Shown here in pieces: positions 2,736 to 43,072 of a stretch of 45,233 nt of DNA (positions are counted from its first letter, which is position 1; each line of letters opens with the position of its first letter). Location of the stretch: sequence record OR594180; one strand, given 5' to 3'. The notes beneath the pieces are model-generated. The model worked only from the letters and a program-made list of their open reading frames with translations, ran no database searches and was not told the DNA's origin. The translations under genes were made by a program, and so were the position numbers. Source of the stretch: Escherichia phage vB_EcoM_SHAK7693.

Positions 2736-2768
2736 AAAAAGGCCTCTTTCGAGGCCTTAGTTTTATTT
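2736..2768. terminator. bidirectional rho-independent terminator
   Basis: Stem AAGGCCTC-TTTC-GAGGCCTT flanked by A-run upstream and T-run downstream. Confidence 0.55.
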
Positions 2769-3284
2769 AAATCGCGCGGGCATTAACACCATAAAGGCCG
2801 TGTTTGAAAATTGTATTTTGCATCCTTTGGTTTGGTCCTGGAAATCGAAACGAGCAATTTCATTTTTGTATGCCTTAGAAATCTTGTACGCGTCTGCCAA
2901 ATAGCGCAGAGTGAACCCTATACTGTCGACAACACCCGGTGTGATGTGCGCCACGCGTCTCCAGTCAGGAAAGTTTCCTTCTACAACATCTACCGGAAGT
3001 GTACATATAAGCACACGATTATCGTCATAGAAAGATACACTGCCGTTGTCGTGGTTTACCTCTGCGTAGTTAAATTTAGAAGGCTCTCTCCCTTTGATGT
3101 CTATGAGAGTCCCTTTCTCAACGTTGGTCTTCACATTGTCGCAGAACAATCTATGACCGTCCGTAGACACTATCAATCCTTCAGGGTCTATGTAAAAAGC
3201 GTTCAAATAGTAGCGAACATCATTTTTAGCTCTGCATATTTTTGCCCCTACATACGCAGGGAAAGTAATTACTGTAGTAACCAT
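2763..3284 (-). CDS. DnaN-like protein (beta sliding clamp domain II plus C-terminal half of domain III)
   Basis: Motifs DVRYYLN, STDGHRL, GNFPDWRRV, SIGF..YL.D and C-terminal LMPARF match E. coli DnaN residues ~140-366 from memory; own promoter and terminator. Confidence 0.65.
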   Translation of the reverse strand: MVTTVITFPAYVGAKICRAKNDVRYYLNAFYIDPEGLIVSTDGHRLFCDNVKTNVEKGTLIDIKGREPSKFNYAEVNHDNGSVSFYDDNRVLICTLPVDVVEGNFPDWRRVAHITPGVVDSIGFTLRYLADAYKISKAYKNEIARFDFQDQTKGCKIQFSNTAFMVLMPARFK

Positions 3285-3311
3285 TTTGCGTCTCCTGTTT
3301 AAGTTAACTGA

Positions 3312-3340
3312 ATAGTACCCTATTATATTGGTGTCTGCAA
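3312..3340 (-). promoter_or_regulatory. class-A promoter (TTGCAG-N17-TACTATTCA) for DnaN-like gene
   Basis: Conserved element shared with five other loci; correct spacing to ATG at 3284. Confidence 0.5.
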
Positions 3341-3384
3341 ATATTATTTTTATACGTTACACTGGCGGTACTATAGGAGGGCAT

Positions 3385-4889: not shown

Positions 4890-4890
4890 T

Positions 4891-4920
4891 AAAAGGCCCC
4901 GTAAGGGGCCTTAGTTTTAG
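4891..4920. terminator. bidirectional rho-independent terminator
   Basis: AAAAGGCCCC-GTAA-GGGGCCTT then T-rich run. Confidence 0.55.
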
Positions 4921-5108
4921 TTAAGGTACGCGGCTCGCCCCGCCATATAACCAGCAAGATACATTTTAAACCACTCGTTACATTCTCCATTCTCGTAATA
5001 CGCCCCAATCTTCCACATTTCTTTTGCTTCGCGGTCAAAGCGGAAACGACCTTTACAGTTCTTCTCGAATGATTCCATGATTTCGTACCATTCTTTGGAA
5101 TATAACAT
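4917..5108 (-). CDS. hypothetical small protein (63 aa), antisense moron
   Basis: RBS AGGAGG before ATG 5108; own class-A promoter; shares terminator at 4891-4920. Confidence 0.5.
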   Translation of the reverse strand: MLYSKEWYEIMESFEKNCKGRFRFDREAKEMWKIGAYYENGECNEWFKMYLAGYMAGRAAYLN

Positions 5109-5134
5109 TTTTACCTCCTGTTTAATTTAACTGA

Positions 5135-5164
5135 ATAGTACCCTATTATGTTGGTGTCTGTAAA
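5135..5164 (-). promoter_or_regulatory. class-A promoter (TTTACA-N18-TACTATTCA)
   Basis: Near-identical to element at 3312-3340. Confidence 0.5.
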
Positions 5165-5215
5165 CTATTTATTTACGTATCCCAGTTATTCCACCGAATT
5201 GTAAATGTTGGAATA

Positions 5216-10728: not shown

Positions 10729-11141
10729 TGGGCTACTTTGAGGACTTAACCAAAGCGTTTGATGTGCCGTTGGTAGCCTTCGGGAACGCAAACGGCATCA
10801 AGGTTGCGCTTGAAAACATCGACGCGCCGACGTCAACAGATACGCCGTATCTGGCGAGTTACATGTTGCTGGCGGATACGGAACAGGCGGATTTGTTCTT
10901 CACCGAGCAACGCTCTGGTATCTATCAGGTCGACATTAACTACGCATCGGCGAAAGGTAGCGCGCCAATCAATAAAATGGCAGACTTACTTAACACGGCG
11001 TTTAAAGCAGGCAAGTCATTTTCACGTAACGACATCTGCGCCGAGGTTCAATCGGTTAGCCTGGGGCCGCTGATTGTAGAAAACGGATGGGCCAAAAGAC
11101 CATTGTCAATTAACTTTATTGCATTCACCAAGAGGCTGTGA
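10728..11141 (+). CDS. putative tail terminator protein
   Basis: Position immediately before major tail protein. Confidence 0.4.
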   Translation: MGYFEDLTKAFDVPLVAFGNANGIKVALENIDAPTSTDTPYLASYMLLADTEQADLFFTEQRSGIYQVDINYASAKGSAPINKMADLLNTAFKAGKSFSRNDICAEVQSVSLGPLIVENGWAKRPLSINFIAFTKRL

Positions 11142-11143
11142 AT

Positions 11144-12310
11144 ATGGCTACAACTCCTTTTAAGGGCGCGACTACCGCGCAATTCTATGTGGCGGAAGTC
11201 ACCCCGGGCGTAACACCGACTAACCCGGTATGGTCGCCGTTGCGTAACACAGGTGGCGTTCCTGCTATTACCCGTGACACGCTGACCTCCAACGAACTGG
11301 ACGGCAGCCGTGAAACTACATCCATCCGAACCGGTAACAAACAGGTTAGCGGTGAATACGCGGTCGAGCTTAGCTCTAAAAGCCAGGACGACTGGCTGGC
11401 GGGTGCTTTAGGCTCTACGTGGCAATCCGGTGTTTCTCTGTCCGGGCTGTCTATTACCGTCGCCCCGGCGGGAAAGACGTTCACCCGTGCTGATGGCAGC
11501 TTTATTACCGACGGCGTTGAAGTGGGCGACCTGATTGCGTTTACCGACTTAACAGGTGATAACGCCAAACCGTTTATCGTAACCGAGGTAAGTGCGACTG
11601 TTGTCACCGGTGCTGGTATCCAACATACGCTGACCACCGAGACCGCCACTACTGCGGCTAAAACTGGCGATAAGCTGGAAACCGGTAGCCAGTGTAAGAC
11701 GTTCTCTATTCTCACATGGTACAAAGGCCAGTGTGGTGGGGCTGACGCGTACACGCTGACCAAAGGCGTGGAAGTTTCTGGCTTCACTATTGAGCAGGCC
11801 GTTAACGCTATGGTAACTGGCAGCTTCCCGTTCATCGGTCGCAGTCAGGAGATTCTCACCACGCAGCCGTCTGGTTCTGATTTCTCTACGGTGACTTTCA
11901 CTGATGAGCCGTTCTCTTCGGTTGACGTTTCTGTGTTCGATGGCTCTACGCCGTTGCGTTGTGATAGCCTTACCATCACCAACGACAACAGCGCGTCCGC
12001 GCAGTTCGAACTCGGCAATACTAATGTGGCGTTTGTGGAGCGTAGCCGCGCGGCTAACACCTTCTCCATCTCCGGCAAGCTGTACGACATGGCTATGATT
12101 CAGAAGTTTATCAACGAACAACAGGTAGAGATTAACTCTATTCTGGCGGGGGTAAACGGGGCTATGTCTTTCAGTCTGAAACGTGCAGAACTCACGGCGG
12201 TTACGCCAGAGATTGGCGGGCCTGAGTCAATCACTCAGTCCATTGAAGGCCAGGCAACCGGCAATCAGTACCAGTCGTCTATTGTTATCCAGCGTATCAC
12301 CTACGCATAA
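11144..12310 (+). CDS. major tail protein
   Basis: 390 aa Thr/Ser/Gly-rich; RBS AGAGG; followed by terminator and then chaperone-frameshift pair. Confidence 0.65.
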   Translation: MATTPFKGATTAQFYVAEVTPGVTPTNPVWSPLRNTGGVPAITRDTLTSNELDGSRETTSIRTGNKQVSGEYAVELSSKSQDDWLAGALGSTWQSGVSLSGLSITVAPAGKTFTRADGSFITDGVEVGDLIAFTDLTGDNAKPFIVTEVSATVVTGAGIQHTLTTETATTAAKTGDKLETGSQCKTFSILTWYKGQCGGADAYTLTKGVEVSGFTIEQAVNAMVTGSFPFIGRSQEILTTQPSGSDFSTVTFTDEPFSSVDVSVFDGSTPLRCDSLTITNDNSASAQFELGNTNVAFVERSRAANTFSISGKLYDMAMIQKFINEQQVEINSILAGVNGAMSFSLKRAELTAVTPEIGGPESITQSIEGQATGNQYQSSIVIQRITYA

Positions 12311-12314
12311 AACT

Positions 12315-12340
12315 AAGGCCCCTTTCGGGGCCTTTTCTTA
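12315..12340. terminator. bidirectional rho-independent terminator
   Basis: GGCCCC-TTTC-GGGGCC then TTTTCTTA. Confidence 0.55.
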
Positions 12341-12499
12341 CTCACTTTTGAATGGCATTTCATGGAAGTTAGTTAACTGACCTCGGTTACTACGTTCTGT
12401 CATTTCTTTCGAGGCCTCTTCCTTACTACCAACAGCATAAATATCAACCCACTCATCCCATTCTTCGTCATATACGCGGATTACGTATATTGTTTTCAT
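12338..12499 (-). CDS. hypothetical small protein (53 aa)
   Basis: Hand-translated; last gene of antisense island. Confidence 0.3.
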   Translation of the reverse strand: MKTIYVIRVYDEEWDEWVDIYAVGSKEEASKEMTERSNRGQLTNFHEMPFKSE

Positions 12500-12506
12500 A
12501 ATATTT

Positions 12507-12737
12507 TCACTCATCAATGTTACTCCGGTACTCCCGTAACTTCTCCAGACTTTCTATTGCTTCTGCTAAGTCGGTTCCTGTGTCTTTGTGTCCGCGAAGG
12601 CCCATACACAACAGCTTCTTCAATGCGTGCTGTAGCGCCGGGTCCCGGATATCGAAGGCGCGGAGCACATCATAAACATCTACTGTCATAGTGCTGCCGT
12701 GGGTATTTGTCATTGTGCGGTTGTATTTATTTGTCAC
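12507..12737 (-). CDS. hypothetical protein (76 aa)
   Basis: ORF in antisense island. Confidence 0.45.
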   Translation of the reverse strand: MTNKYNRTMTNTHGSTMTVDVYDVLRAFDIRDPALQHALKKLLCMGLRGHKDTGTDLAEAIESLEKLREYRSNIDE

Positions 12738-12927
12738 TGTTAACTCTCTTAAATCGGGCTATGCCTGACTCGTTAATGCTGCCTATTTCAAAGAAGCTGC
12801 GATATTTAGGCGAATACATTCTTACGTCGCCGTTCTCTAGGGTGACCCCTTCATATACAGCGCCTACTTCGAATCCATTTTTCTCCGCGTACGGACTCAC
12901 ATCGGTGCATTCATACATATCTTTCAT
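12727..12927 (-). CDS. hypothetical protein (66 aa)
   Basis: ORF in antisense island, overlaps neighbours by a few codons. Confidence 0.45.
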   Translation of the reverse strand: MKDMYECTDVSPYAEKNGFEVGAVYEGVTLENGDVRMYSPKYRSFFEIGSINESGIARFKRVNSDK

Positions 12928-14054
12928 CCCAGCATCTCCGGTGAAATAGTTAAACGTGCGACCTCGCCATATTCGGCACTATAGGTAATTACATTTGCGC
13001 TACGGCCTGACATCCATCCACCGCGCGAGGCGTAGGCGTCTTTAGCCGCCAGGGTGCGGTGTTGCTCAACAATCATGTTACGGCTTTCCACAATCTTCTG
13101 ATGGTGGAGGTGGCCTACGTGGGCGTAGCTGTAAACGCTTTCGCCAAATGCTTTGCGGAACTTGGCAATCATAACCGGTTCGATAGCGTCGAATCGTGCC
13201 TTATGCCCGTGGTGAAAGAACAGCGTCGTTTTGCCGTGTTGCACCATCTTGTAAACATCTGGCGACGTATCGACGAACACACGAGGCTCATTGTCGTACA
13301 GCGTACTAAACATCTCAGCTAACCAAATCATTCCGCTTTCGTCGTGGTTTCCTTGCACGATAAGCAAGCGAACATTTTTATGCTTAACCAGCGCCATATC
13401 GACAACACGGCGGACCATACGAATCATGTAGCGGACAAGTTTCTGATAGCGAGTGTCCGCATCAAGGGCGTGACCGCTTGCAGGCGTAACGGCAACCAGA
13501 CTGTCGAAGTGCGCGAAGTCGCCCAGCAGGTTAATAACTCCAGTTCCTGCATCCGGCGCTTTCTGGAACGCCGCATCGAACCAGCGAGAAAACAGGTCTT
13601 CCGCAATCTTCATATCCCAGTCGTCGCCACTCTCGTCGGCCCAGGCCAGCATACCAAGATGGAAATCAGATACAGTGTAAAGATTGAGTAGTTTATCGTC
13701 ACGTTTGGTGCGAACGGCTTTAACTGGTACAACGGGAGTAATCTCCGACTTCATGCCTTCGATTACGGCTTTCATCAACTCGACCTGACGTTCAGCGTCA
13801 GTGTCTGTCTTAACCCATTGCAACTTAGTGTTGCCGAACTCGTCCACAAGCGACGACGTTCCTTTAATCTTGTAGCCGTCCGGGACAAGATGGCTAACGT
13901 CACGACCGTGACCTACGCCTTTCTTCGCCAGCTTCGCTTTACGGATACGAATAACGCGGTCTGAGATGCCGTATTTACGGGCGATGTCTACATTCTTCAT
14001 CCCGGCGTTCAATTCTTCCTGTAACTGTTCGTCGGTTATTTTCTTCTGGGCCAT
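12924..14054 (-). CDS. calcineurin-like metallophosphoesterase with N-terminal HTH
   Basis: Motifs DFH, GDFAH, GNHD, HHGH, GHLHH; N-terminal ~50 aa HTH-like (DIARKYGISDRVIRIR). Confidence 0.7.
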   Translation of the reverse strand: MAQKKITDEQLQEELNAGMKNVDIARKYGISDRVIRIRKAKLAKKGVGHGRDVSHLVPDGYKIKGTSSLVDEFGNTKLQWVKTDTDAERQVELMKAVIEGMKSEITPVVPVKAVRTKRDDKLLNLYTVSDFHLGMLAWADESGDDWDMKIAEDLFSRWFDAAFQKAPDAGTGVINLLGDFAHFDSLVAVTPASGHALDADTRYQKLVRYMIRMVRRVVDMALVKHKNVRLLIVQGNHDESGMIWLAEMFSTLYDNEPRVFVDTSPDVYKMVQHGKTTLFFHHGHKARFDAIEPVMIAKFRKAFGESVYSYAHVGHLHHQKIVESRNMIVEQHRTLAAKDAYASRGGWMSGRSANVITYSAEYGEVARLTISPEMLG

Positions 14055-14092
14055 GCTTACTTCCTCGTGTTTAGGATTTGTCCTATACTAGC

Positions 14093-14284
14093 TCACTTCT
14101 CTTTGACATTCGAGTTACAAGCCCAGATTAAAATAAATACCCACGGCAACAGAATCCAGCCAAGAAACAGGTTCGCCATGAATATCGCCAACTTCGCTTT
14201 ATGGTTGCGCATATGGGCTACTAAAAACGGGATAAAATAAACTAAAACGATAATGATTAAGAAGAACATAGTAATACCTGTCAT
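14093..14284 (-). CDS. small membrane protein (63 aa, two predicted TM helices)
   Basis: Internal ATG with RBS AGGAG; hydrophobic segments; first gene after class-A promoter. Confidence 0.5.
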   Translation of the reverse strand: MTGITMFFLIIIVLVYFIPFLVAHMRNHKAKLAIFMANLFLGWILLPWVFILIWACNSNVKEK

Positions 14285-14325
14285 GGTGTAGCTCCTGTTT
14301 GAGTTAACATTGTTGGTGTAAGTGA

Positions 14326-14354
14326 ATAGTATCCTATTATGTTGGGGTGCGCAA
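14326..14354 (-). promoter_or_regulatory. class-A promoter (TTGCGC-N17-TACTATTCA) for antisense island
   Basis: Conserved element upstream of island. Confidence 0.5.
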
Positions 14355-14462
14355 GTAATGTGATAGAATAATTTTGCGCCTAGTGTCGCACACGAAAAGC
14401 GGGTGGTTCCCGTCTGGCGCATTTACCATTAACCTGTAACCTCTTAACCAAAGGATTAAAGA

Positions 14463-14879
14463 ATGAAACTTTCTGATTTTTATTACGAAGCTGAGGCAGA
14501 AAAAGGCGCCCGTATGCCGATACCACTGAAAGACGGCACCGATTCAGGGGAGTGGCTGAACGTTGTTTCACCGGAGGCAGACGTTGCCGTTAAAGCTATG
14601 AGGGCGTTTACACTTGCGTACCGCGCGGCATTAGGTAAATTGAAACCGCTTCGCGATAAATGCGAGGAACTGAAAGATTTCTCGGAATACAACCTGAAGA
14701 TGGAAGACGCGGCCACGGACCTTAACCGACAGTTAGCAATTGAATTGGTTAACGGGTGGAGCCTGGACGACGAATTCAATAAAGAGAATCTGAACACACT
14801 CCTGACGCAATATAAACGACTCGCGGAACTTGTTGTTGTGTTTCATAACGAACAACTGCGCCAGTTACAGGAAAAGTAG
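14463..14879 (+). CDS. tail assembly chaperone (G-like)
   Basis: Acidic 138 aa protein immediately before tape measure with overlapping -1 frame ORF. Confidence 0.6.
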   Translation: MKLSDFYYEAEAEKGARMPIPLKDGTDSGEWLNVVSPEADVAVKAMRAFTLAYRAALGKLKPLRDKCEELKDFSEYNLKMEDAATDLNRQLAIELVNGWSLDDEFNKENLNTLLTQYKRLAELVVVFHNEQLRQLQEK

Positions 14880-15244
14880 ACGCGTTGCTCCAGTTCGCCC
14901 GTTGGAACTTCATAACCCGCCACAAACGGCGGGAATTTGACAGTATCGCCGACGGGCATAAAGCCGCGCTAATTGCTATGGGGGTTATGCAAGACGCGCC
15001 GGAAGCAACGCAGGACACCGGGCCGGAATGTCCCCCTGAGCTATTAACCACCTTCGAGAAGTACCGGGAAATCAAATTTACCCGCCGAGTGGATGCCGAC
15101 GGCATCAAGATGTACCCGCGCGAACAGTTACGATGGTCGGATTTAGTGGCATACAGCACCGTTTCAGGCCAGAATATAGGCATGTTTGAATCTGACATCA
15201 TCATGAGCTTAGACGCTATTTTCGAGGGTAGAAACGATGGCTGA
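14849..15244 (+). CDS. tail chaperone -1 frameshift extension (T-like part)
   Basis: -1 frame open from 14849; ends overlapping tape measure start; candidate slip site GGAAAAG at 14870-14876. Confidence 0.45.
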   Translation, partial: RTTAPVTGKVDALLQFARWNFITRHKRREFDSIADGHKAALIAMGVMQDAPEATQDTGPECPPELLTTFEKYREIKFTRRVDADGIKMYPREQLRWSDLVAYSTVSGQNIGMFESDIIMSLDAIFEGRNDG

Positions 15245-17576
15245 TGTAGCTAGTTTAGTTGTAAAAGTATCAGAGCAAGGCGCGAAAGCTACATCAGACC
15301 GTCTTGACAACCTTTCAAAGTCCGCAAAAGTAGCGGGGGCCGCTGTAGCAGGCCTTGCTTCTATCGTAGCGGCTACCGCATATAAAGCCGCGCAAGAACT
15401 GGTTGACTCACAGCGGCAACTGGACAAGATGTCCGCTAGTTTGAAGACCTTAACCGGAAGTACCCAGGGCGCTAAACAGGCGCTTAGTATCCTGCAAGAT
15501 TTTGCGCGCGACACACCATACGGGCTTGAGCAGGCGGTGGAAGGCTTCCGTAAGCTGGTGGCTCTGGGCCTTACCCCATCCGAGGAGGCGTTGCGGTCCT
15601 ACGGCAATACCGCATCGGCTATGGGTAAGGACCTTAATCAGATGATTGAGGCGGTAGCCGACGCCAGTACGTTCGAGTTCGAACGCCTCAAAGAATTCGG
15701 CATCAAAGCCAAGCAGAACAAAAACGACGTAGAGTTTACGTTCCAGGGAACGACAACGGTAGTTAAGAAAAGCGCTGCCGATATTGAGCAGTATTTACTC
15801 AATATTGGTAACGTAAATTTTGCAGGGGCTATGGCGGACCAAGCCAACACCCTTAATGGCGCTATCGCGAGTGCCAGTGACTCATGGTCGCAGCTAAAAA
15901 TGACGCTTGCCACCAGTCTTGATGTTGGCGCACTTGCTGAACCTATCAGGTATATCGATGACTTGATTCAGGAATTAAACGCGTCTGTTGCTTCCGGTGA
16001 ATTAGCCGCTGAAATGCAGATGTGGGGCGACATCGCGTCGGAAGTAGGAAGCGCTATCGAGATGTCATTCGACGCTGCGTTTGGCTTTGTTGGAGATGCC
16101 ATCAACGGGCTTAATGAACTGTGGGATTTCAGCAGCAAGAGTATTACGGATAGCGGAGAACAAACGGCTACTACCATCGCTGAATCCGCTGCCGATGCGC
16201 TTGACTTCATCGCGGAAGAGTTCACAGCGATGGAGAGATTCTTTGAAGATATGGTTAAAGGTGCGCAGGACGCGGGCCGTCTTGTACGAGCCGCTTTTAC
16301 CCCCGGGGAATCAGTAGACGTAGCTAAAAATATCAACTTCCAGCTTGGCATGGCTTTGGATACCCAGCGAGATGTCGCCGACGTTACGCGTAAAAGTTTC
16401 CGCGAACAGGTAGAAGCTCAACAGGATATTGTAGCGTTAAAACGCGCGGCGTATGACATCGATAAGGAATCCGCAAAAGCTGAGGGGTTAAACAAATTTA
16501 AGGTAACCGGAACTGGCGGCGGTTCTGATGATGACGGGTCTGCTGCAAAAGCCGCTAAGAAAGCAGCGGACGCGTTCGAGCGCCAGAAGAAAGCGGCGGA
16601 AGACTTCTACTATCAGTCAATCCATCTTAATGATGACGTATTTCAGAAAATAGAAGCTAACCAGGAAGAGCAACTATCTAAGTTGCAGGATTTCTATAGC
16701 AATAAGCTTCTTAGCGACCAGCAATACGAAAACGCCAAGACGCAGATTATGCTCTCTGCCGAACAGGCCCGCCAGGAAGAACTGGATAAACGCCAGAAAG
16801 AAGCCCTGGAAAAGCAGCAGAAAGGCGACGACTTCATGGCTCAGATTATGGGCCAGAACGCCACTGAGCTTGAGCTTCTCGATATTCAGGAACAGCAGAA
16901 ACTGGCGGTAGCGGATAAGTACCGGGAGCAGGGGCTGATTAGCGAGAAGCAGTATCAGGCCGCGCTTAACGCCATCAACGAGCAATACGCAACCAAGCGT
17001 GCCGACGCAACGGCAACCGCCTTCGGTAACATGGCCTCAAACATCGGGTCTGCGTTGGGTGAGGCTTCTGGCGCGTACAAGGCATTCGCTATCGTACAGG
17101 CCACCATAGCCACGTACACCGCCGCCATTGAAGCGTATAAGTCAACGGCTGCTATCCCGGTTGTTGGGCCGTTCCTCGCACCGGTAGCCGCTGCCGCTGC
17201 CGTTGGGGCAGGTATGGCGCAGGTTTCCGCTATCAGGTCTGCACGTGAACAGGGCGGTCAGTTATCCGCAGGGCAAGCATCTACCATCGCAGAACGAGGC
17301 AAACCTGAGGTCATCATGCCCGCTGGAGCATCGCGAGTGCGCACCGCGCAACAAATGAAAGAGATTATGGGGCAAAACGGAGGAAGTACCGGGCCCGCCA
17401 ATATCAGCATTATAAATAACACCAGCGCACAAATTGGCAACACCAGCGTTGAACAGGACGAAGAAGGCCGCCTACGTATCATCATCGAAGAACAGGTAGC
17501 CGCCTCTTTGCAGAATAGCAACAGCAAAATATCGAAAGCGAGGAAGGCTACAAGAAACGCACCGGGCTTTAAGTAG
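15237..17576 (+). CDS. tail tape measure protein
   Basis: 779 aa, Ala/Gln-rich coiled coil, follows chaperone pair. Confidence 0.85.
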   Translation: MADVASLVVKVSEQGAKATSDRLDNLSKSAKVAGAAVAGLASIVAATAYKAAQELVDSQRQLDKMSASLKTLTGSTQGAKQALSILQDFARDTPYGLEQAVEGFRKLVALGLTPSEEALRSYGNTASAMGKDLNQMIEAVADASTFEFERLKEFGIKAKQNKNDVEFTFQGTTTVVKKSAADIEQYLLNIGNVNFAGAMADQANTLNGAIASASDSWSQLKMTLATSLDVGALAEPIRYIDDLIQELNASVASGELAAEMQMWGDIASEVGSAIEMSFDAAFGFVGDAINGLNELWDFSSKSITDSGEQTATTIAESAADALDFIAEEFTAMERFFEDMVKGAQDAGRLVRAAFTPGESVDVAKNINFQLGMALDTQRDVADVTRKSFREQVEAQQDIVALKRAAYDIDKESAKAEGLNKFKVTGTGGGSDDDGSAAKAAKKAADAFERQKKAAEDFYYQSIHLNDDVFQKIEANQEEQLSKLQDFYSNKLLSDQQYENAKTQIMLSAEQARQEELDKRQKEALEKQQKGDDFMAQIMGQNATELELLDIQEQQKLAVADKYREQGLISEKQYQAALNAINEQYATKRADATATAFGNMASNIGSALGEASGAYKAFAIVQATIATYTAAIEAYKSTAAIPVVGPFLAPVAAAAAVGAGMAQVSAIRSAREQGGQLSAGQASTIAERGKPEVIMPAGASRVRTAQQMKEIMGQNGGSTGPANISIINNTSAQIGNTSVEQDEEGRLRIIIEEQVAASLQNSNSKISKARKATRNAPGFK

Positions 17577-25781: not shown

Positions 25782-27202
25782 TTCTTACCTCGTCTCTTCA
25801 TGTAATTAAGCAATTCTTCCTGGACCGATTTCTTCTCGTCGGTACGCGCGGCAACAACCTCATCCAGCGTGTCTCGGGCTATTATTTGATAAATGAATAC
25901 AGACCTTTTGTATCCAGATTGCATCTGCCTTACCGGACCTATGCGCTCGATAACCTGCAGATAATGTTCCAGGTTCCATCCCTGACTCATAAAAGCCATG
26001 TGGTGTCCGCCGTGTTGTAGCGACAGCCCGTGACCCGCAGAGGCCGGGTGTATTAGGAGCATAGGTATCTCGCCACGGTTCCACGCTTCCATCTGCTTAT
26101 TACCCTTAGCGCCTTTGGCAAACGCCTGGGCTTGAGGGAATCGCTTAAGGATACGTTCCAGTTCGTGCTTGAACTGATAGGCCACCAGTAACGGTGCCCC
26201 CTGTAACTCCTCAACAATGGACTCGAGCGCATCCAGTTTCGTATCGTGCACTTTCTCCCAGTCTTTGGTTGCTTCTCCGTCTGGCCCCGATACATATACA
26301 GCGCCGGATGCAATCTGTAGGCACTTCGACGTCTTCGCGGCAGCGTTAGCCGCTTCAACTTCTCCGCTCTCCAGTTCCGCGAATAACTTTTCCTCCATAT
26401 CGATGTACGCCTGACGCGCCTTCTTCGGCAGGTCAATTTCCACTGGCACGATAATCGGCGCTTCGCAACCAAACCACTCGGCGGCGTCAACCGTGAGACT
26501 AATGTCTTTCATCTTCTGATGAATCTCATTATCCGCACCCGGTCGTGCGTGATACTCCCGCGCCATCGCGGATTTCCCTTTCTGTACCGAGTTAAACCAG
26601 CGGTCTGTGAATGCCGTGTACGAAGAACCAAGGCGCTCGCCAGCGTCGATAAACCAGTTCTGCCCCCACAAGTCCTTGAGGCCGTTCGGCGACGGTGTGC
26701 CTGTCAGGTTAATGAAACGCTTAACCTTTCCGAACGCCACTTTGCTTAGCGCCTTAGCCCGTTTGCTTCCTCCAGAACGGCTACGGAAAGATTTCAGCTT
26801 CGTGCTCTCATCAGCAACGATAACCGTAAAAGGCCAGTCGTCTTTGCCGTAGTAGTCAATCAGCCACTCGATAACTTCGTAGTTTGTGCACACCACGTTA
26901 GCATCTGACTCCAGCGCCGCGATACGGCGCTTCTCTGAACCGGTTGCGTCTACGACACTCAGACAGGGGAAGTTCCAACGTGCCTGTTCCGCGGGCCACG
27001 TACCTGACGCAACACGTAAAGGAGCCAGAATTAACACTCGGTCGTCGTCATTAAGTTGCCCATTACGGAACAGCCGATTGAGAACCCACAACGTTGACCC
27101 CGACTTACCGCTGCCCATGCTCGCCCAGATATTGCAGCGATGGTGCCGCAGCATGAACGAAGTCATGAGCTTCTGGTATTCGCGCCTTTGAAACTTACTC
27201 AT
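25778..27202 (-). CDS. SNF2-family helicase
   Basis: Walker A GSGKS, DEST box, LTGTP, C-terminal helicase motif GHGLSLQ. Confidence 0.8.
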   Translation of the reverse strand: MSKFQRREYQKLMTSFMLRHHRCNIWASMGSGKSGSTLWVLNRLFRNGQLNDDDRVLILAPLRVASGTWPAEQARWNFPCLSVVDATGSEKRRIAALESDANVVCTNYEVIEWLIDYYGKDDWPFTVIVADESTKLKSFRSRSGGSKRAKALSKVAFGKVKRFINLTGTPSPNGLKDLWGQNWFIDAGERLGSSYTAFTDRWFNSVQKGKSAMAREYHARPGADNEIHQKMKDISLTVDAAEWFGCEAPIIVPVEIDLPKKARQAYIDMEEKLFAELESGEVEAANAAAKTSKCLQIASGAVYVSGPDGEATKDWEKVHDTKLDALESIVEELQGAPLLVAYQFKHELERILKRFPQAQAFAKGAKGNKQMEAWNRGEIPMLLIHPASAGHGLSLQHGGHHMAFMSQGWNLEHYLQVIERIGPVRQMQSGYKRSVFIYQIIARDTLDEVVAARTDEKKSVQEELLNYMKRRGKK

Positions 27203-28061
27203 TTACCGCCCCCATGAATGCCTTTATAAATTCAGCGGCTACTTGCGGGACGATGGCATTGCCATAACCGCGCAATCGTCCCACTCTGGCGGGTATCCCA
27301 TTAGCCAGCGGGAATGCGCCGGGTTCAACTGGCCTGAATTTTCCATCCCGGCATCCGAGCCAGTCAGTATCTGACCAGAAGCCGTGATGCGGATTGGTTG
27401 TGTTATTTTCAGACCCTGCTCCGTCGAGTAGTCCAGCCTGTCGAATGTTCTGTCTTTTCCGTCCTTGCGAATAACTGTCTCTCCGCTCCCTCTGTAATCG
27501 TTCGCTGTTGGGGTCGGCCATGCCAAAAGGTATTGTGCGTGCGTCGCCAGATTGCAATTCGCATTCGGTCTGTTGAAGCGTTTTTCCGCGTAGGCTTGTG
27601 GGTCTTTCGCTCTGCTGTTGTTGTCGTCCGCAACCGCTGGCGTCGGCCAGGTTGTGCGCGCCGAAGAACAGTCTGTCGCGTTTGTGCGGTGCGCCGACGC
27701 TACAAGCTGGGAGTACGGCAAACCCGACGGCGTAGTCTTCTCCTTCCAGGTGAGTTTGTAAATCGCACATCCACGATTTTGCAATTGCTGGCGCAACCTG
27801 CTCCCCAAAGAGGACTGGAGGTCGGCACTCGCTGATAAGGTCGAGGAACACAGGTGCGAGGTGTCTCTGGTCGAACTGTCCGAGTTGCTTTCCCGCCGCG
27901 CTAAACGGTTGGCAAGGCGGGCTTCCCGTCCAGAGAGGCGCATCTTCCGGAACTCCCGCAAGTCTGAGCGCGAGAGGCCAGCCGCCGATACCAGCGAAAA
28001 AAATGACACTGGGTGAACCCGTCAAGGTCTTCTGGCTTAACTTCGGTAATGCTTCTTTCAT
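27195..28061 (-). CDS. DNA (cytosine-5)-methyltransferase-like protein
   Basis: Motifs FAGIGG (I), PPCQPFS (IV), GEQV (VI), KRDRLFF (VIII), GNAIVP (X); motif I to IV spacing unusually short. Confidence 0.6.
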   Translation of the reverse strand: MKEALPKLSQKTLTGSPSVIFFAGIGGWPLALRLAGVPEDAPLWTGSPPCQPFSAAGKQLGQFDQRHLAPVFLDLISECRPPVLFGEQVAPAIAKSWMCDLQTHLEGEDYAVGFAVLPACSVGAPHKRDRLFFGAHNLADASGCGRQQQQSERPTSLRGKTLQQTECELQSGDARTIPFGMADPNSERLQRERRDSYSQGRKRQNIRQAGLLDGAGSENNTTNPHHGFWSDTDWLGCRDGKFRPVEPGAFPLANGIPARVGRLRGYGNAIVPQVAAEFIKAFMGAVNE

Positions 28062-28367: not shown

Positions 28368-28652
28368 CTAACTATAATAGTTCGCTATTAGGTCGTCAAC
28401 CTGTTTAAACGAACCAACGACAAAAACATTCGCACCACGTTTACGCATCCGCTCATGCTCCCGTAACTGGTGCGGGTCAGGCTTCGTGTTCTCGTCTTTC
28501 TTCACCTCGACGAACCAGATGACGCCGCCGGGGAGAATTATCAGCAGGTCAGGAGCGCCCACTCTATTTTCGTACGACAATTTGCGTACAAGGCCCCCCA
28601 GGGCCTCGAATCGGTCTTTTGCGTATTTCTGAATCTTGCCTTCCGGGGTCAT
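28368..28652 (-). CDS. VRR-NUC domain nuclease
   Basis: GAPDLLIILPGG...FVEVK PD-(D/E)XK-like core; ATGA-coupled start. Confidence 0.65.
   Translation of the reverse strand: MTPEGKIQKYAKDRFEALGGLVRKLSYENRVGAPDLLIILPGGVIWFVEVKKDENTKPDPHQLREHERMRKRGANVFVVGSFKQVDDLIANYYS
28371..28399 (-). promoter_or_regulatory. class-B promoter (TTGACG-N17-TATAGT)
   Basis: Near-consensus sigma70 hexamers; spacer contains GCGAACTAT element shared with 32100 and 34976. Confidence 0.45.
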
Positions 28653-32099: not shown

Positions 32100-32128
32100 A
32101 CTATAATAGCTAACTATTCAGGTGTCAA
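32100..32128 (-). promoter_or_regulatory. class-B promoter (TTGACA-N17-TATAGT)
   Basis: Consensus -35; spacer TGAATAGTTAGCTAT. Confidence 0.45.
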
Positions 32129-32132
32129 CACT

Positions 32133-32624
32133 TTATTTGCCGTGATTTTCGTGGAAACCGTACTTAACCTCTGCGGCCTTTCGCGCTGCTATTGCGCCGT
32201 CGATAGTTTCAAAACGTCCGAGATGAATTAGTTTCTTCTCAACTTTTATCTCAGCTCGCCATTTGCCGCGGGTTTTATCGAAACTAACACCCGTCACCCC
32301 TGACGTGTTGTTGCGGGCTAAAGATAAATTACGGCTGTTCTCTTTTCGGGTTGTTTTCCTTAAATTAGAAAGAAGATTATTTTCCCGATTATGGTCAATA
32401 TGGTCTATCTCCTCTCCAGGTTGAAGTTTATTTTCAGGGTTCATCATATCCCATATAATTCTATGCGCCAGAAATGTCCTTCCACGTAAACGTACGCACA
32501 CATAGCCCCAATTACGGACAGACGCGACCTCGCTCCCAGCGGGTGCACGATTGCTGTTAGTTACGCGCCAATACAACTTACCGGTATTGGTATCATACCT
32601 AAAATAATCTTCCCATTTAATCAT
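32133..32624 (-). CDS. HNH homing endonuclease with AP2 domain
   Basis: DHIDHNRENN...ENSRN HNH motif; GVSFDKTRGKWRAEI...LGRFETIDGA AP2 domain. Confidence 0.8.
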   Translation of the reverse strand: MIKWEDYFRYDTNTGKLYWRVTNSNRAPAGSEVASVRNWGYVCVRLRGRTFLAHRIIWDMMNPENKLQPGEEIDHIDHNRENNLLSNLRKTTRKENSRNLSLARNNTSGVTGVSFDKTRGKWRAEIKVEKKLIHLGRFETIDGAIAARKAAEVKYGFHENHGK

Positions 32625-33862
32625 TCCAAATCCTCCTCTGTTACCCCCTTCCACTCAGGTCGTTTGTCGTCCGCCGTTGTAACGCATGGGGCTCCGGGCT
32701 TACGCGTGATGAAGTTTTTTAGTTCTTCTTCTGGGATAACTTTCAAGGCTGCTGTAGGGGTCATGATTGACTTAGTCATAACTTTATCACCAAATTTAGC
32801 AATAACGGCATCGGGGTCCGCCCAGGAGCGATTGCCATCCCGCCCTTCAACCAGTTTGTACCCCTGAACTTTCTTACCGGAATGCAATGCGGCGGACATC
32901 GCTTTTTCAACCTTGTCAATGTGCTGACGCAACAACGGCAACTTCTCATACTCAGCCACGAGTTGCTCAGGTGTCAGTTCCGGCAAAAAGTCGTCCTCCA
33001 GTTCTTCTGCCAGTACCGAATTAACAGTCTTCGTTCTGGCAGCGCACTGTTCAGAGAACCTGCACCACTGGCAACCATCAACCGACGGCTTAAAGTCTGA
33101 CGCTTTCAGGTTCTTCTTACCGCGGAAGTACGCATCGAGCGCTAACAGTGCGCGTTTCTGTGCGAACTTAGCGAACAGTTCCAGACCTTGAACAGAGATA
33201 TCCCACTCCGAAGCACCGCCAGCATACGGCTGGAAGATGACCAGACGAACAGTTGTTATGTTATAACGTCTCTTGAGTCGGCGATAAACACCGAGAGCGT
33301 AAAGCATAAGCTGCTTGTTTTCTTTCGCTTCGACACGATGCCGTCCGGTTTTCAGGTCGCCAATAATGAGCATGTGCTCGTCGGTGTTTGCCAGGTCCTG
33401 AACGGCAACGAGGTCGGCGGTCCCGAACGTCTCAACGCCTTCATATCCCGGATGCAGCACCTCGGTAAGATTTACGCGCATTTCCAGCTTGGCGTAAGTC
33501 GCTACATCGATAATAGCTTTGCAGTAGTCGGTGTACTTACGCACCTGCTCAATCATGTCCGCCGTAATAAGTACCGCACCTTTCACAGGGCTGATTAACG
33601 CCTTAATCTGGCCTTTGCCTTCATCCAGCACGTAAGCGCCAACTTCACGCTCTAACGGCAATGCAGTGCCACGGATATAGGCGTTTAGATGGACCTCTGC
33701 TATGGTGTGGCACGCGGTCCCTGTAACTGCGGCTTTACCCGACGTGTTAGGAATATCTTTTTCACAGGCTAGCGATGCAGCGCAGCTTAGCCACTTTTTA
33801 GCGCCCGACGGCGACAGTAAGGCGTGTACATCGTTATTGCCGCCGCGTTCTTTTAGGATCAT
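32621..33862 (-). CDS. PD-(D/E)XK nuclease, DUF2800/Cas4-like
   Basis: N-terminal LSPSGAKKWLSC hallmark; C-terminal Cys cluster CQWCRFSEQC; ATGA-coupled. Confidence 0.5.
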   Translation of the reverse strand: MILKERGGNNDVHALLSPSGAKKWLSCAASLACEKDIPNTSGKAAVTGTACHTIAEVHLNAYIRGTALPLEREVGAYVLDEGKGQIKALISPVKGAVLITADMIEQVRKYTDYCKAIIDVATYAKLEMRVNLTEVLHPGYEGVETFGTADLVAVQDLANTDEHMLIIGDLKTGRHRVEAKENKQLMLYALGVYRRLKRRYNITTVRLVIFQPYAGGASEWDISVQGLELFAKFAQKRALLALDAYFRGKKNLKASDFKPSVDGCQWCRFSEQCAARTKTVNSVLAEELEDDFLPELTPEQLVAEYEKLPLLRQHIDKVEKAMSAALHSGKKVQGYKLVEGRDGNRSWADPDAVIAKFGDKVMTKSIMTPTAALKVIPEEELKNFITRKPGAPCVTTADDKRPEWKGVTEEDLE

Positions 33863-34975: not shown

Positions 34976-35004
34976 ACTATAATAGCGAACTATTCACATG
35001 TCAA
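34976..35004 (-). promoter_or_regulatory. class-B promoter (TTGACA-N17-TATAGT)
   Basis: Consensus hexamers; divergent from HTH regulator gene. Confidence 0.45.
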
Positions 35005-35009
35005 TGGGC

Positions 35010-35045
35010 TTTTCTAAAATAATTAATATGGTACTATTCACATAT
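35010..35045 (+). promoter_or_regulatory. class-A-like element (TACTATTCA) upstream of HTH regulator gene
   Basis: -10-like TACTAT with TTCA; weak -35. Confidence 0.35.
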
Positions 35046-35300: not shown

Positions 35301-35611
35301 TGCAACTTATCGAGTTCTTCCAAATTCTTAATCGTGTGTTGCACATTCAGGTACTGAATCCAGGCAAAAAGCCATACGCTCACCGGAAAACTAACCGCGG
35401 CAGCCGTTCTGAAAACAATGTGGGCGGTACACGCTACAATTTCCTTTAACGTCATATCCAGAACATGGCGCAATTCTGCAACTTCCTCTAACGCTAGCTT
35501 GCAAACAGGCCACCATTGGTGGGCTACACAAGAAACACATGTCAGGTATGTCGGGCGGTATCCGGCCCTAACTGCTTTAAACGGGTTATTTATAAAATCG
35601 TAAATATTCAT
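35297..35611 (-). CDS. hypothetical protein (104 aa)
   Basis: ATGA-coupled to primase/helicase gene. Confidence 0.45.
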   Translation of the reverse strand: MNIYDFINNPFKAVRAGYRPTYLTCVSCVAHQWWPVCKLALEEVAELRHVLDMTLKEIVACTAHIVFRTAAAVSFPVSVWLFAWIQYLNVQHTIKNLEELDKLQ

Positions 35612-38394: not shown

Positions 38395-38764
38395 ACATAA
38401 TCGCACCTATTGACATTATGGAAATCTTCGTTTAAGGTGCTTCTATATCTTAGTTACTTTTATTCCTGTTCACCTTGTAAGAATGTTTAACCCGTGCGTC
38501 AAGCAAAGGGTTAAACACAGGCTTACTGAACATTAGAATTATAGTAACTTTCCTTCCTAAGTATCTCCAGTTGCCTTGGGCAAGCTCTATTCTCATCGGC
38601 AGCATATATCTTAAGTATCTGATTTTCTTAAAGTGCCGTAGATTCGCAACCGTAAAAATGTAACGATTATTGGGCAGGCCTTAAGCCTGCCCTTTAGTTA
38701 CCAAGTAATAAGAATAAAGGCACAACCTTCCCCGAAGAATCACAACGGCAACGTAACTATTCTC

Positions 38765-38793
38765 TTGCACACCCCAATATAATAGGATACTAT
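38765..38793 (+). promoter_or_regulatory. class-A promoter (TTGCAC-N17-TACTATTCA)
   Basis: Conserved element; extra AACTATTC half-site about 20 bp upstream. Confidence 0.5.
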
Positions 38794-38827
38794 TCACTTA
38801 TCGGAACGAGACAGAGGAGTTGGGGTT

Positions 38828-39807: not shown

Positions 39808-39836
39808 TTGCACACTGGGATAGAATAGGCTACTAT
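39808..39836 (+). promoter_or_regulatory. class-A promoter (TTGCAC-N17-TACTATTCA)
   Basis: Conserved element. Confidence 0.5.
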
Positions 39837-39969
39837 TCATTTACACGAACGAGGGGGGAGACGGAATATGATTCCTGGGCATTAGGCGAACTGGTAGATG
39901 CTTACGAAATAATGGGTAGCACTTCGGTGCGCGACGGTGACACTAAAGCGATAAAAATGGGGGTTGAGG

Positions 39970-43052: not shown

Positions 43053-43072
43053 CTATTTTCTGTAATGACTAG

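Follow-up and report, generated by a model that had tools for sequence, protein, structure and literature searches.

An antisense island in the tail operon of a Kagunavirus encodes an Imm-family protein and a putative DNA-directed metallophosphoesterase

What is a block of antisense genes doing within the tail operon of a phage? We analyzed a stretch of 45,233 nucleotides from Escherichia phage vB_EcoM_SHAK7693 (OR594180; the window), in which five minus-strand ORFs span 12338-14284 (Table 1). A prior reading of the sequence, made without database searches, had described five antisense genes between the major tail protein and the tail chaperone, and ORF calling found all five there. From the promoter end, they encode a small membrane protein (imm), a metallophosphoesterase (MPE), and three small proteins (orf66, orf76, and orf58). 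Comparison with phage Snoke indicates that all five genes are under purifying selection: pN/pS is 0.088 for imm, 0.073 for the MPE gene, 0.049 for orf66, 0.000 for orf76, and roughly 0.2-0.27 for orf58.

Table 1. Positions of the island, its parts, and its neighbors in the window.
Feature	Coordinates	Strand	Details
Tail-tube gene, one flank of the island	11138-12310		PF18906, E=1.3e-39
Bidirectional intrinsic terminator (predicted)	12315-12334	both	AAGGCCCC-TTTC-GGGGCCTT; island border
Island ORFs as called	12338-12517, 12507-12737, 12727-12927, 12924-14054, 14093-14284	- (all)	ORF calling
orf58	12338-12514	-	Small acidic protein; 58 aa from ATG 12514, 59 aa from TTG 12517
orf76	12507-12737	-	Very strongly conserved small protein
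orf66	12727-12927	-	Accessory small protein, in a subset of Kagunavirus only; start overlaps the MPE stop (ATGA)
MPE gene	12924-14054	-	HTH-fused binuclear metallophosphoesterase, 376 aa, phrog_704
MPE catalytic core	12927-13700	-	aa 119-376
MPE N-terminal three-helix HTH	13920-14054	-	aa 1-45; GerE/LuxR or sigma-70 region-4 type
imm	14093-14284	-	63-aa two-transmembrane protein, T4 Imm superinfection-immunity family, PF14373
Putative island promoter block ("class A")	14319-14364	-	-35-like ATCACA 14364-14359; -10 CATAAT 14341-14336; island border
Conserved CTTGCGCACCCCAAC and dyad operator AATAG-N4-CTATT	14325-14338 (dyad)	-	Within the island promoter block
int-alpA-like structured RNA motif	14373-14437	+	26 nt upstream of the tail-chaperone start codon; outside the island transcript
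Tail-assembly-chaperone genes (two), other flank	14463-14879, 14885-15244		

The sequence-only reading took the block for an unusual accessory insertion, which does not hold. The source phage is a Kagunavirus (Guernseyvirinae), and 457 phage records match the island region. Kagunavirus and Jerseyvirus share the core of imm, the MPE gene, and orf76 as their conserved arrangement, and variation is confined to the slots that follow the MPE gene. In many genomes, GenBank already labels these genes as "superinfection immunity protein" and "phosphoesterase / DNA repair exonuclease". The records of Ivi, Snoke, and SETP7 show the identical gene order, to which wast adds an endonuclease and a DNA-binding gene. 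So the island is already known, as a standard annotated arrangement in a well-sampled subfamily, and by itself it adds nothing new. The interest lies in the enzyme, which has an intact active site and occurs in about 4% of the phages sequenced so far, with the classic T1 group among them.

The island is best read as a self-contained transcription unit of Guernseyvirinae that lies antisense within the late tail operon. At one border, the bidirectional terminator of the sequence-only reading is borne out by a GC-rich hairpin of 8 pairs (6 of them G-C) with T-runs on both strands (scored per strand). We predict that it closes both the tail-tube transcript on the plus strand and the island transcript on the minus strand. 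The window contains a family of five such terminators (at 2736, 4890, 12312, 25387, and 31375), and in the record for phage Snoke, the terminators at the equivalent place are annotated as a pair. Rfam "Histone3" matches at the terminators were rejected as spurious hairpin matches.

At the other border, the proposed class-A promoter fared less evenly. As a generic sigma-70 promoter, it scores no better than regional chance (the best candidate was ATCACA-17-CATAAT, with 9/12 matches), but it does carry a recurring motif: ATAATAG-N4-CTATTCA occurs 10 times in the window, versus 0.19 expected, and the core dyad AATAG-N4-CTATT occurs 8 times, versus 0.05 expected. Over 37 nt (14319-14355), the sequence shares 95% identity with 38764-38800, which is upstream of the rightward early genes. 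In six copies of the motif, including the island's, a Shine-Dalgarno sequence and an ATG follow within about 25-45 nt. The promoter block is nearly invariant in Ivi, Snoke, and EcoPhCCP1, and the dyad is retained in Jerseyvirus SETP7. We infer that the block acts as the island's promoter.

The motif is common to the island, the cro-like gene, the rightward early genes, and two further antisense cassettes, which suggests early-type expression. The island appears to be expressed early and to be co-regulated with the early genes. In RNA-seq of the Kagunavirus vB_Eco_K1B4, imm peaks alongside the DNA polymerase and methylase genes and not with the bulk class (PMC12645636). The early timing rests on the common motif and on this one low-resolution study; imm is the only island gene mentioned in the paper, and its supplements have no entry for the MPE gene (PMC12645636).

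For the first gene, the sequence-only reading had the anatomy right (a 63-amino-acid membrane protein with two helices), and a more specific identity can now be given. The product matches PF14373, the T4 Imm family, with E=1.3e-13 and 51 bits (the cutoff is 27.9 bits); residues 15-56 align to positions 1-42 of 42. It also matches phrog_1039 ("immunity to superinfection") with E=1.5e-23. Its ATG is preceded, at 7 nt, by AGGAG, and homologs are found in 371 phage records. We predict that it is a T4 Imm-type inner-membrane protein that most likely stops DNA entry by superinfecting phages. We rejected an extended reading of imm (109 amino acids) and a 30-amino-acid ORF at 14337-14429, because both run across the promoter and RNA region, which is conserved, and because EcoPhCCP1 has a frame-breaking indel (of 10 nt, in the frame of the extended imm).

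The second gene encodes the putative enzyme. MPE matches phrog_704 ("DNA repair exonuclease") across nearly its full length (E=7.6e-166; residues 3-375 align to profile positions 1-389 of 390), and full-length homologs are found in 1,958 phage records (about 4% of phage records). The Metallophos profile search that the sequence-only reading had proposed as a check does give matches, but both are below the gathering cutoffs (21.4 versus 27 bits for PF12850 and 19 versus 21.5 bits for PF00149). The subfamily is too divergent for these Pfam models, so its membership in the superfamily rests on motifs and fold.

The complete set of esterase motifs that had been noted (DFH, GDFAH, GNHD, HHGH, and GHLHH) is legible in the translation, as D130-x-H132, G178-D179-x2-H182-x-D184, G235-N236-H237-D238, H281-H282-G283-H284, and G314-H315-x-H317; T190 and L197-D198 are specific to the family. 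Our initial homolog search gave only sequences that were at least 97% identical, which were of little use for an alignment. In an alignment of 40 homologs with 33-50% identity, D130, H132, G178, D179, N236, H237, H282, G314, and H317 are invariant, and conservation is at least 90% at H182, D184, G235, D238, H281, G283, H284, and H315. This conservation of catalytic residues implies that catalysis is under selection. A structure model with a pLDDT of 90.8 has a beta-sandwich phosphoesterase fold; within the core, pLDDT is at least 92 except for one 10-residue block (aa 341-350, about 78). Given the motifs and the modeled fold, we assign MPE to the calcineurin-like metallophosphoesterase superfamily.

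The HTH-like N-terminus that had been proposed is also borne out. The model has three helices (residues 8-16, 21-28, and 32-44), and the profile matches are weak but consistent: Pfam GerE (E=0.026), the FixJ HTH, and, when the family profile was compared to the PDB, GerE, DesR, and NarL. A search of the PDB with the single sequence gave only chance matches. Within the family alignment, conservation is lowest in the HTH. As for the core, the nearest folds to the confident model are DNA nucleases (PolD DP1, Mre11, and SbcD), and Ser/Thr phosphatases are far. DP1 is the small subunit of the archaeal polymerase PolD and is a 3'-5' proofreading exonuclease.

The MPE family is carried by T1-like phages. 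The gene is directly upstream of terS/terL in Dhillonvirus, whereas in T1-like and Vibrio phages its neighbors are lysis, HNH, or head genes. We considered whether a pairing with a membrane protein is conserved outside of Guernseyvirinae, but there is none beside MPE in U136B, JLBYU37, or a Vibrio phage.

Of the three small proteins, orf76 is a widespread and highly constrained phage protein. Relative to phage Snoke, it has 16 synonymous changes and no nonsynonymous changes, and its conserved core comprises KY..., VDVYDVL.AF, and PA.QHALKK.LC.GLRGHKD. Homologs of orf66 are found in just 25 phage records, all from Escherichia/Kagunavirus. For orf58, the ATG at 12514 is more probably the start than the TTG at 12517: an SD-like CCGGAG lies upstream of the ATG, and the gene is annotated as 177 nt in phage Ivi. 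Neither orf66 nor orf58 has a match in Pfam, PHROG, NCBIfam, or PADLOC. More broadly, searches of the island proteins against NCBIfam and PADLOC gave nothing meaningful, and PADLOC had no match for any of the five.

In our reading, orf66 and orf58 sit in swappable slots. EcoPhCCP1 has an unrelated HAD-type PNKP phosphatase in place of orf66, and the slots that follow the MPE gene are filled in sister phages by a HAD PNKP-type phosphatase (PF25109) and a dNMP kinase (phrog_139). These enzymes of sister phages point to nucleotide metabolism. We also considered whether orf66 and orf76 might be remnants of the PNK-phosphatase and dNMP-kinase cassette, but there is no similarity; these are alternative cassettes instead.

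What might the enzyme do? The sequence-only reading had proposed host-DNA degradation, hydrolysis of cyclic or signaling nucleotides, or Ser/Thr phosphatase activity. Of these, action on DNA best accounts for the fold neighbors, the HTH, and the early-type promoter, and host-DNA degradation is the leading version of it. In the mechanism that we propose, the dyad-bearing promoter would drive five translationally coupled genes and the bidirectional terminator would end the transcript. MPE, a predicted solo HTH-tethered binuclear metallophosphoesterase, would most likely be a metal-dependent nuclease that acts on DNA: the GerE-type HTH would carry the Mre11/DP1-like core to DNA, standing in for the Rad50/SbcC or polymerase partner of its structural relatives. 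Its most likely role would be early host takeover via breakdown of the host chromosome and salvage of the nucleotides, as with the unrelated A1 protein of phage T5. A1 is predicted to be a solo metallophosphatase; host DNA degradation requires it and needs no other phage protein besides it, as it is both necessary and sufficient, and it has been described as resembling double-strand-break-repair and proofreading nucleases (bioRxiv 10.64898/2026.04.02.716235).

Overall, we give somewhat less than an even chance to the view that the island is an operon for early host takeover and exclusion and that its enzyme would be a DNA-tethered, metal-dependent nuclease with the host chromosome as its target. 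A defense system that senses m6-dAMP from degraded host DNA protects against Bas12 (bioRxiv 10.64898/2026.01.15.699771), one of the T1-like phages, a group that carries the MPE family. The phage has nucleases for other needs. Its polymerase, which is the only one in the window, is of family A and contains a 3'-5' exonuclease domain; the phage also encodes a DUF2800 PD-(D/E)XK nuclease, an SSB, and a SNF2 helicase. With the exonuclease domain and the DUF2800 nuclease, the needs for proofreading and recombination nucleases are already covered. On the other hand, an HTH of a sequence-specific type would be unexpected in an enzyme that breaks down a chromosome indiscriminately, and there is no evident protection of the phage's own DNA. 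Also, the genes beside MPE in T1-like phages, Dhillonvirus, and Vibrio phages are for lysis or packaging and are not obviously an early block, which is a point against an early role. In the literature that we searched, we found no characterized member of phrog_704.

The strongest alternative is that MPE processes phage DNA, as a Rad50-independent, Mre11-like nuclease that would process ends or trim branches for recombination-dependent replication, concatemers, or packaging, with the HTH targeting phage sequences. This would explain why Mre11 and SbcD are among the fold neighbors, why the gene adjoins terS/terL, lysis, HNH, or head genes in other phages, and why the HTH is so variable, which would follow if the DNA sites that it reads differ from lineage to lineage. 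But the DUF2800 nuclease, SSB, and SNF2 helicase already serve recombination; MPE lies under an early-type promoter and is paired with imm rather than with replication or packaging genes; and it lacks a capping domain or a Rad50 partner. We think that this role is unlikely.

It is less likely again that MPE is an anti-defense phosphodiesterase that destroys the signals of CBASS, Pycsar, Thoeris, or type III CRISPR systems or other immune nucleotides. The apparent early expression, the adjacent competition gene (imm), and the wide distribution of the family in virulent phages are consistent with this idea. However, the fused DNA-binding HTH would have no role, the top fold matches are nucleases, the fold is calcineurin-like, and PADLOC was blank. 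Among known anti-signaling enzymes, Acb1 has a 2H fold and Apyc1 has a metallo-beta-lactamase fold, and neither is like MPE's. Also, nearly all members of several phage families carry MPE, as would be expected of a core function more than of a counter-defense aimed at particular hosts. We consider this role improbable.

We doubt even more that MPE is mainly a transcription regulator whose HTH acts on the AATAG-N4-CTATT operators at about ten promoters, to turn early genes off or late genes on, with the esterase as a sensor or accessory. GerE/LuxR-type HTH proteins do bind inverted repeats as dimers, the over-represented dyad overlaps the -10 regions of early promoters, the HTH has a weak match to phrog_836 ("late transcriptional activator"), and in other phage families, the MPE gene lies at the boundary between early and late genes. 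But the phage encodes a separate Cro-like regulator that has its own class-A promoter, the dyad is not found at the T1-like, Dhillonvirus, or Vibrio loci that carry MPE, and the catalytic residues do not vary across thousands of homologs. Finally, although MPE is in the same superfamily and some deposited homologs are labeled "serine/threonine protein phosphatase", it is very improbable that MPE reprograms host proteins as a lambda-PP-like Ser/Thr/Tyr protein phosphatase, as the PPP signatures (GDxHG, GDxVDRG, and GNHE) are absent, with DFHLG, GDFAHFD, and GNHD instead, and the HTH fusion would be unexplained.

Returning to host-DNA degradation, it is possible, although doubtful, that phrog_704 as a whole is a new class of solo HTH-guided Mre11/DP1-like nucleases that destroy the host chromosome early and allow nucleotide salvage in T1-like, Jersey-like, Dhillon-like, and many marine siphophages. 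The family would then be an independent counterpart of T5 A1 and a likely source of the degraded-DNA signals that are sensed by Metis and PUA-Cal-HAD. If MPE does dismantle the host chromosome, then the long-missing host-DNA-degradation gene of T1-like phages would be named, and the gene would also give a handle on how these phages trigger or evade the defenses that sense degraded DNA.

Between the island's promoter and the tail-chaperone gene is a structured RNA on the other strand. Against Rfam RF02996 (int-alpA), it reaches 32.5 bits, short of Rfam's gathering score of 35.8 (E=0.0054 when the window is searched as a whole); for canonical copies, the range is 55-69 bits. Across 12 distinct variants from Guernseyvirinae, 96.4% of cells are paired, versus 35-61% for slid controls. 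Between genera, both partners are changed in two P2 pairs (few independent events); changes in the P1 core pairs and in P3 are all to wobble pairs, and the outermost P1 pair is open in 6 of the 12 variants. The Jerseyvirus version was not detected at E ≤ 0.1. We classify this RNA as a divergent int-alpA-like element whose three-helix structure is apparently kept by compensatory change, as judged from those few events. Both this element and the modularity of the terminator, antisense genes, and dyad promoter should be useful for annotating and engineering therapeutic phages.

How does the locus compare to known systems? Like canonical int-alpA, the RNA has a three-helix layout with the single-stranded blocks CUAG, CGAAAAGCGGG, and CCCGyCUGG, and canonical copies are likewise placed about 25-30 nt upstream of a start codon. 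It differs in that P2 and the P3 loop are shorter, and it precedes a tail-chaperone gene of a virulent phage, whereas canonical copies belong to integrative elements, in which they separate the integrase gene from the gene that follows it. The closest islands are those of other Guernseyvirinae, such as Snoke (CPT_Snoke_021-025), Ivi (ECPH5_40-44), and SETP7 (gp21-23), which share the position between the tail-tube and tail-chaperone genes, the antisense orientation, the core, and the bidirectional terminator. Kagunavirus records are 90-94% identical at the nucleotide level, and the MPE protein is 97-99% identical. Orthologous islands differ in the variable slots only, with orf66 and orf58 here and a PNKP-type phosphatase and dNMP kinase, an HNH endonuclease, or a DNA-binding protein elsewhere. 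As in T4 Imm, the imm product has two hydrophobic helices, and it covers the full 42-position domain above the curated cutoff; it is shorter, and it is encoded by a siphophage.

The modeled phosphoesterase fold of MPE is near to that of Mre11 and SbcD, but sequence similarity is negligible (E of about 0.7-1 in a profile search of the PDB). MPE also lacks the capping domain (the model ends on core elements, E353-359, E363-370, and H372-375) and the Rad50/SbcC-binding C-terminus, and it has instead an N-terminal HTH and a beta-hairpin/helix module. None of the window's large ORFs is a Rad50/SbcC gene, and there is none in the full annotation of the sister genome, Snoke. Unlike PolD DP1, MPE has no OB-fold domain (its N-terminal region is the HTH and the beta-hairpin/helix) and no DP2 partner. 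The T1-like carriers of phrog_704 are not known to encode a polymerase.

T5 A1 (phrog_1745) is larger (556 amino acids), has no fused HTH, and belongs to a different PHROG family. Specific homology was rejected: hhalign gave 21% with the single sequence (20 columns) and 38% for profile to profile (45 columns), with the A1 profile built from an 8-sequence alignment from diverse phages. Nor is MPE a fusion of the T5 A2-A1 pair, as A2 matches the HTH with 1.5% probability and T5.005 is not in the Imm family. So we keep A1 solely as a functional analogy. Both proteins are phage-encoded metallophosphoesterases without a partner that are said to resemble repair or proofreading nucleases; A1 is expressed before replication, as we infer for MPE too; both genes are preceded by a gene for a small membrane protein with two transmembrane helices; and nucleotide-metabolism genes are nearby, both in T5 and in relatives of the island.

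The region around the antisense island (positions 11000-15500) matches 457 phage records. The top match is Escherichia phage Ivi (94.4% identity, full length), followed by Snoke, Schulenburg, further members of Kagunavirus (Guernseyvirinae), and many Salmonella phages of the genus Jerseyvirus. The window begins at the large terminase gene and has the layout of the virulent Guernseyvirinae siphophages (roughly 44 kb). ORF calling recovered the five minus-strand genes that had been proposed from sequence alone, and the genes on either side encode tail proteins (see the table). At each junction within the island, the genes overlap by 4-11 nt or the downstream gene is preceded by a Shine-Dalgarno sequence. 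Because substitutions relative to phage Snoke are overwhelmingly synonymous, all five ORFs are real genes; the pN/pS values are 0.088 (imm), 0.073 (esterase gene), 0.049 (orf66), about 0.25 (last gene), and 0.000 (orf76, with 16 synonymous and 0 nonsynonymous substitutions). The terminator is bidirectional, as proposed: the hairpin at 12315-12334 scores on both strands. The genome contains five related terminators, this one included. The island is already a known, annotated feature.

Features of the island, its flanks, and related elements in the window
Feature	Position	Strand	Basis or remark
Last island gene (orf58)	12338-12517	minus	ORF calling
orf76	12507-12737	minus	ORF calling
orf66	12727-12927	minus	ORF calling
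Esterase gene	12924-14054	minus	ORF calling
imm	14093-14284	minus	ORF calling
Flanking tail-tube gene			PF18906, E = 1.3e-39
Two flanking tail-assembly-chaperone genes			PF08748, PF23812
int-alpA-like RNA	14373-14437	plus	Resemblance to Rfam int-alpA; near-invariant intergenic stretch
173-aa gene	2763-3284	minus	Weak DNA-polymerase-III-beta match; annotated as sliding clamp in Snoke
63-aa gene	4917-5108	minus	Second head-region cassette
ATAATAG-N4-CTATTCA, copies 1-5	3309-3326, 5132-5149, 14323-14340, 28374-28391, 32103-32120
ATAATAG-N4-CTATTCA, copies 6-10	34979-34996, 35023-35040, 38779-38796, 39822-39839, 43066-43083

The 63-aa product of imm contains the whole Imm_superinfect domain (PF14373 in Pfam; 51 bits, versus a cut-off of 27.9) and also matches phrog_1039 ("immunity to superinfection"). 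Its counterparts in sister genomes carry the same superinfection-immunity annotation. An extended reading of 109 aa is not credible, because the sequence upstream is that of the promoter and the RNA element, and because a 10-nt indel in phage EcoPhCCP1 disrupts the frame.

The 376-aa protein had been described as an HTH-fused metallophosphoesterase. The Metallophos models in Pfam match it below threshold only, but phrog_704 ("DNA repair exonuclease") matches it from end to end (E = 7.6e-166). The family is very large, with 4626 representatives of 50%-identity clusters at E <= 1e-3. Among phages, homologs of the esterase are found in 2052 of 50,697 records (1958 are full length); the carriers include Guernseyvirinae, T1-like Drexlerviridae, Dhillonvirus, siphophages of Klebsiella and Vibrio, Campylobacter phages, and roseophages. 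We aligned 40 sequences (33-50% identity) and found that the metal-ligand motifs are invariant or nearly so: D130-x-H132, G178-D179-x2-H182-x-D184, G235-N236-H237-D238, H281-H282-G283-H284, and G314-H315-x-H317. The calcineurin-like motif set is complete, as had been claimed. Other conserved positions (T190, L197-D198, W80, and K82) are specific to the family.

The confident AlphaFold2 model from this alignment (pLDDT 90.8) has a three-helix N-terminal domain (residues 8-44), a beta-hairpin and helix (61-103), and an esterase core (119-376) that extends to the C-terminal end, with no further domain. The N-terminal domain has weak yet consistent matches to HTH domains of the GerE/LuxR type, which agrees with the HTH-like N-terminus of the sequence-only reading. 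The closest folds are those of PolD DP1, Mre11, and SbcD; LpxH and the small phosphodiesterase MJ0936 (13.6) come next, and the Lhr-associated nuclease MPE scores only 9.4. These scores do not cleanly separate nucleases from small phosphodiesterases. We rejected a canonical Mre11/SbcD, as the model lacks the capping domain; a Rad50/SbcC gene is absent from the large ORFs of the window and from the annotated Snoke genome. We also rejected a DP1-type polymerase subunit: the model lacks an OB fold, and the phage polymerase is of family A and includes an exonuclease domain of its own.

The Jerseyvirus phages SETP7 and wast have a core of imm, the esterase gene, and orf76 at the corresponding antisense position, and the slots downstream of the esterase gene vary among phages. 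In this window the slot holds orf66, which is found in just 25 records, from Kagunavirus. In EcoPhCCP1 and several other phages, the slots hold a PNKP-type phosphatase of the HAD family (PF25109) and a dNMP kinase (phrog_139), and in further phages they hold an HNH endonuclease or a DNA-binding protein. In phages beyond this subfamily, the esterase gene occurs in other settings: T1-like phage U136B has it ahead of the lysis cassette, Dhillonvirus has it between terS and the lysis genes, and one Vibrio phage has it beside an HNH gene. At the loci that we examined outside Guernseyvirinae, the esterase gene has no membrane-protein partner. The small phage protein orf76 is separate and widespread, with 773 records, and it is under extreme constraint: Salmonella phage wast has an orf76 with 92% identity but an esterase with only 55%. 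Rtp, ICP2, Acinetobacter phages, and other unrelated phages also carry orf76, a spread that suggests a conserved host target. A search with its confident structure model gave no informative fold match.

At the island promoter (14319-14364, minus strand), the best site from a plain sigma-70 scan was ATCACA-17-CATAAT (9/12), which is at chance level for the region. But the proposed "class-A promoter" is a genuine and statistically strong sequence class: ATAATAG-N4-CTATTCA occurs 10 times in the window versus 0.19 expected, and the core dyad AATAG-N4-CTATT occurs 8 times versus 0.05 expected. At six copies of the longer motif, a ribosome-binding site and start codon lie within about 25-45 nt downstream. 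The genes behind these six are the antisense island, the antisense 173-aa (clamp-like) and 63-aa genes, a cro-like gene, and a pair of rightward early genes (38.8 and 39.8 kb). Over 37 nt, the sequences at 14319-14355 and 38764-38800 share 95% identity. The copies at 28.4, 32.1, and 35.0 kb are on the minus strand, all ahead of leftward replication genes, with a -35-like hexamer beside the dyad and the dyad within the spacer (TTGACA-17-TATAGT at 32.1 kb). Copies of the motif are located at early, cro-like, and replication-gene promoters and at each of the three antisense cassettes. The motif groups the island with the early and replication genes, not with the tail genes around it.

Ivi, Snoke, and EcoPhCCP1 have the promoter block in almost unchanged form, and the dyad is retained in SETP7. 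The activity and the timing of the island promoter are inferred. In the only published time course for a Kagunavirus, imm falls in with the genes for the polymerase and the methylase and outside the bulk class; the esterase gene is not reported there (PMC12645636). The dyad is probably the operator of a phage regulator. Its symmetry provides -10-like hexamers on either strand; the plus-strand site at the island promoter reads TTAACA-17-TAGTAT. A two-way promoter may therefore be present in every antisense cassette, and it may restart late-gene transcription past the cassette's bidirectional terminator.

The other two antisense cassettes (2736-3352 and 4890-5175) lie in the head-gene region and share the island's plan: minus-strand gene(s) accompanied by a class-A promoter and a bidirectional terminator. 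Snoke has its clamp-like gene at another position within the head module.

The 3' end of the int-alpA-like RNA is 26 nt upstream of the start codon of a tail-assembly-chaperone gene. It scores 32.5 bits, which is under the Rfam gathering score of 35.8 (E = 0.0054 for the whole window). Scanning viral contigs with a pattern recovered the element in many Guernseyvirinae, along with canonical int-alpA copies, whose contigs measure about 10-32 kb and in most cases about 16 kb. Four canonical copies that we rescored had 55-69 bits. In the canonical copy whose surroundings we checked, the element separates an integrase gene from the next gene. Among 12 distinct variants from Guernseyvirinae, the paired fraction of cells is 96.4%, versus 35-61% for slid controls. 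In helix P2, two pairs are changed on both sides (GUG/CAC in Kagunavirus versus CGG/CCG in Jerseyvirus); in the other two helices, core-pair changes are to wobble pairs only. These structure-preserving substitutions support an int-alpA-like RNA despite the sub-threshold score. It would be part of the 5' leader that precedes the chaperone and tape-measure genes.

Elsewhere in the window, the replication module contains a gene for a C-5 cytosine DNA methyltransferase (27195-28061, minus strand; PF00145, E = 1.2e-15), and no gene in Snoke's gene list is annotated as such. A homing-endonuclease gene with HNH and AP2 domains (32133-32654, minus strand) is flanked by genes for an ssDNA-binding protein and a DUF2800 PD-(D/E)XK nuclease. 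There is a 27-nt near-repeat at 32618-32644 and 35605-35631, and the lysis/Nin-like region contains a perfect 31-nt tandem duplication (42590-42651, plus strand; two copies of GGCCAAGGCCTCCTGTTACTGAATCGCGATA).

Our leading interpretation, which is tentative, is that the island is an early, self-contained operon for host takeover and competition, with the esterase as a DNA nuclease. Imm would close the cell to rival phages. The esterase, tethered by its HTH, would be a metal-dependent nuclease acting on DNA, with the HTH in place of the DNA-handling partners of Mre11 and DP1. For the esterase we favour a role in host-chromosome breakdown and nucleotide salvage because of its apparent early timing, the nucleotide-metabolism genes that fill the neighbouring slots in sister phages, the precedent of A1 from phage T5, and the fact that T1-like phages carry the family: a defence that detects nucleotides freed from degraded host DNA restricts one such phage, Bas12 (bioRxiv 10.64898/2026.01.15.699771). 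An HTH of a sequence-specific type and the absence of any evident means of self-protection count against indiscriminate degradation.

Processing of phage DNA ends by the esterase seems rather unlikely to us. Hydrolysis of immune nucleotides is improbable, as the esterase matches no defence-system model, and we give slightly less credence to a regulatory role for the protein at the dyad operators. A protein phosphatase is very improbable: the signature motifs of PPP phosphatases are absent, so the esterase is not one of them, and the Ser/Thr phosphatase PP5 has a fold score of only 9.0. The sequence-only reading had listed host-DNA degradation, nucleotide hydrolysis, and phosphatase activity as candidate roles; what it observed is confirmed, and its interpretation is supported only in part. 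What remains of interest is the function of this enzyme family, which is very common in phages, together with the regulatory elements that border the island.

T5 A1, a solo predicted metallophosphatase, is necessary and sufficient for host DNA degradation (bioRxiv 10.64898/2026.04.02.716235). Its homologs (by tblastn) are found in 1135 phage records, well beyond Demerecviridae, including Agrobacterium Autographiviridae, phiCbK-like phages of Caulobacter, and Flavobacterium podophages; in Vibrio phage D232, the A1 homolog is followed by a polynucleotide kinase gene. We rejected the esterase as a relative of A1, since profile comparison gave only 21-38% probability over short stretches. Also, T5 A2 does not resemble the HTH of the esterase, and T5.005 is not a member of the Imm family. 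The esterase and T5 A1 are analogs and not specific homologs.
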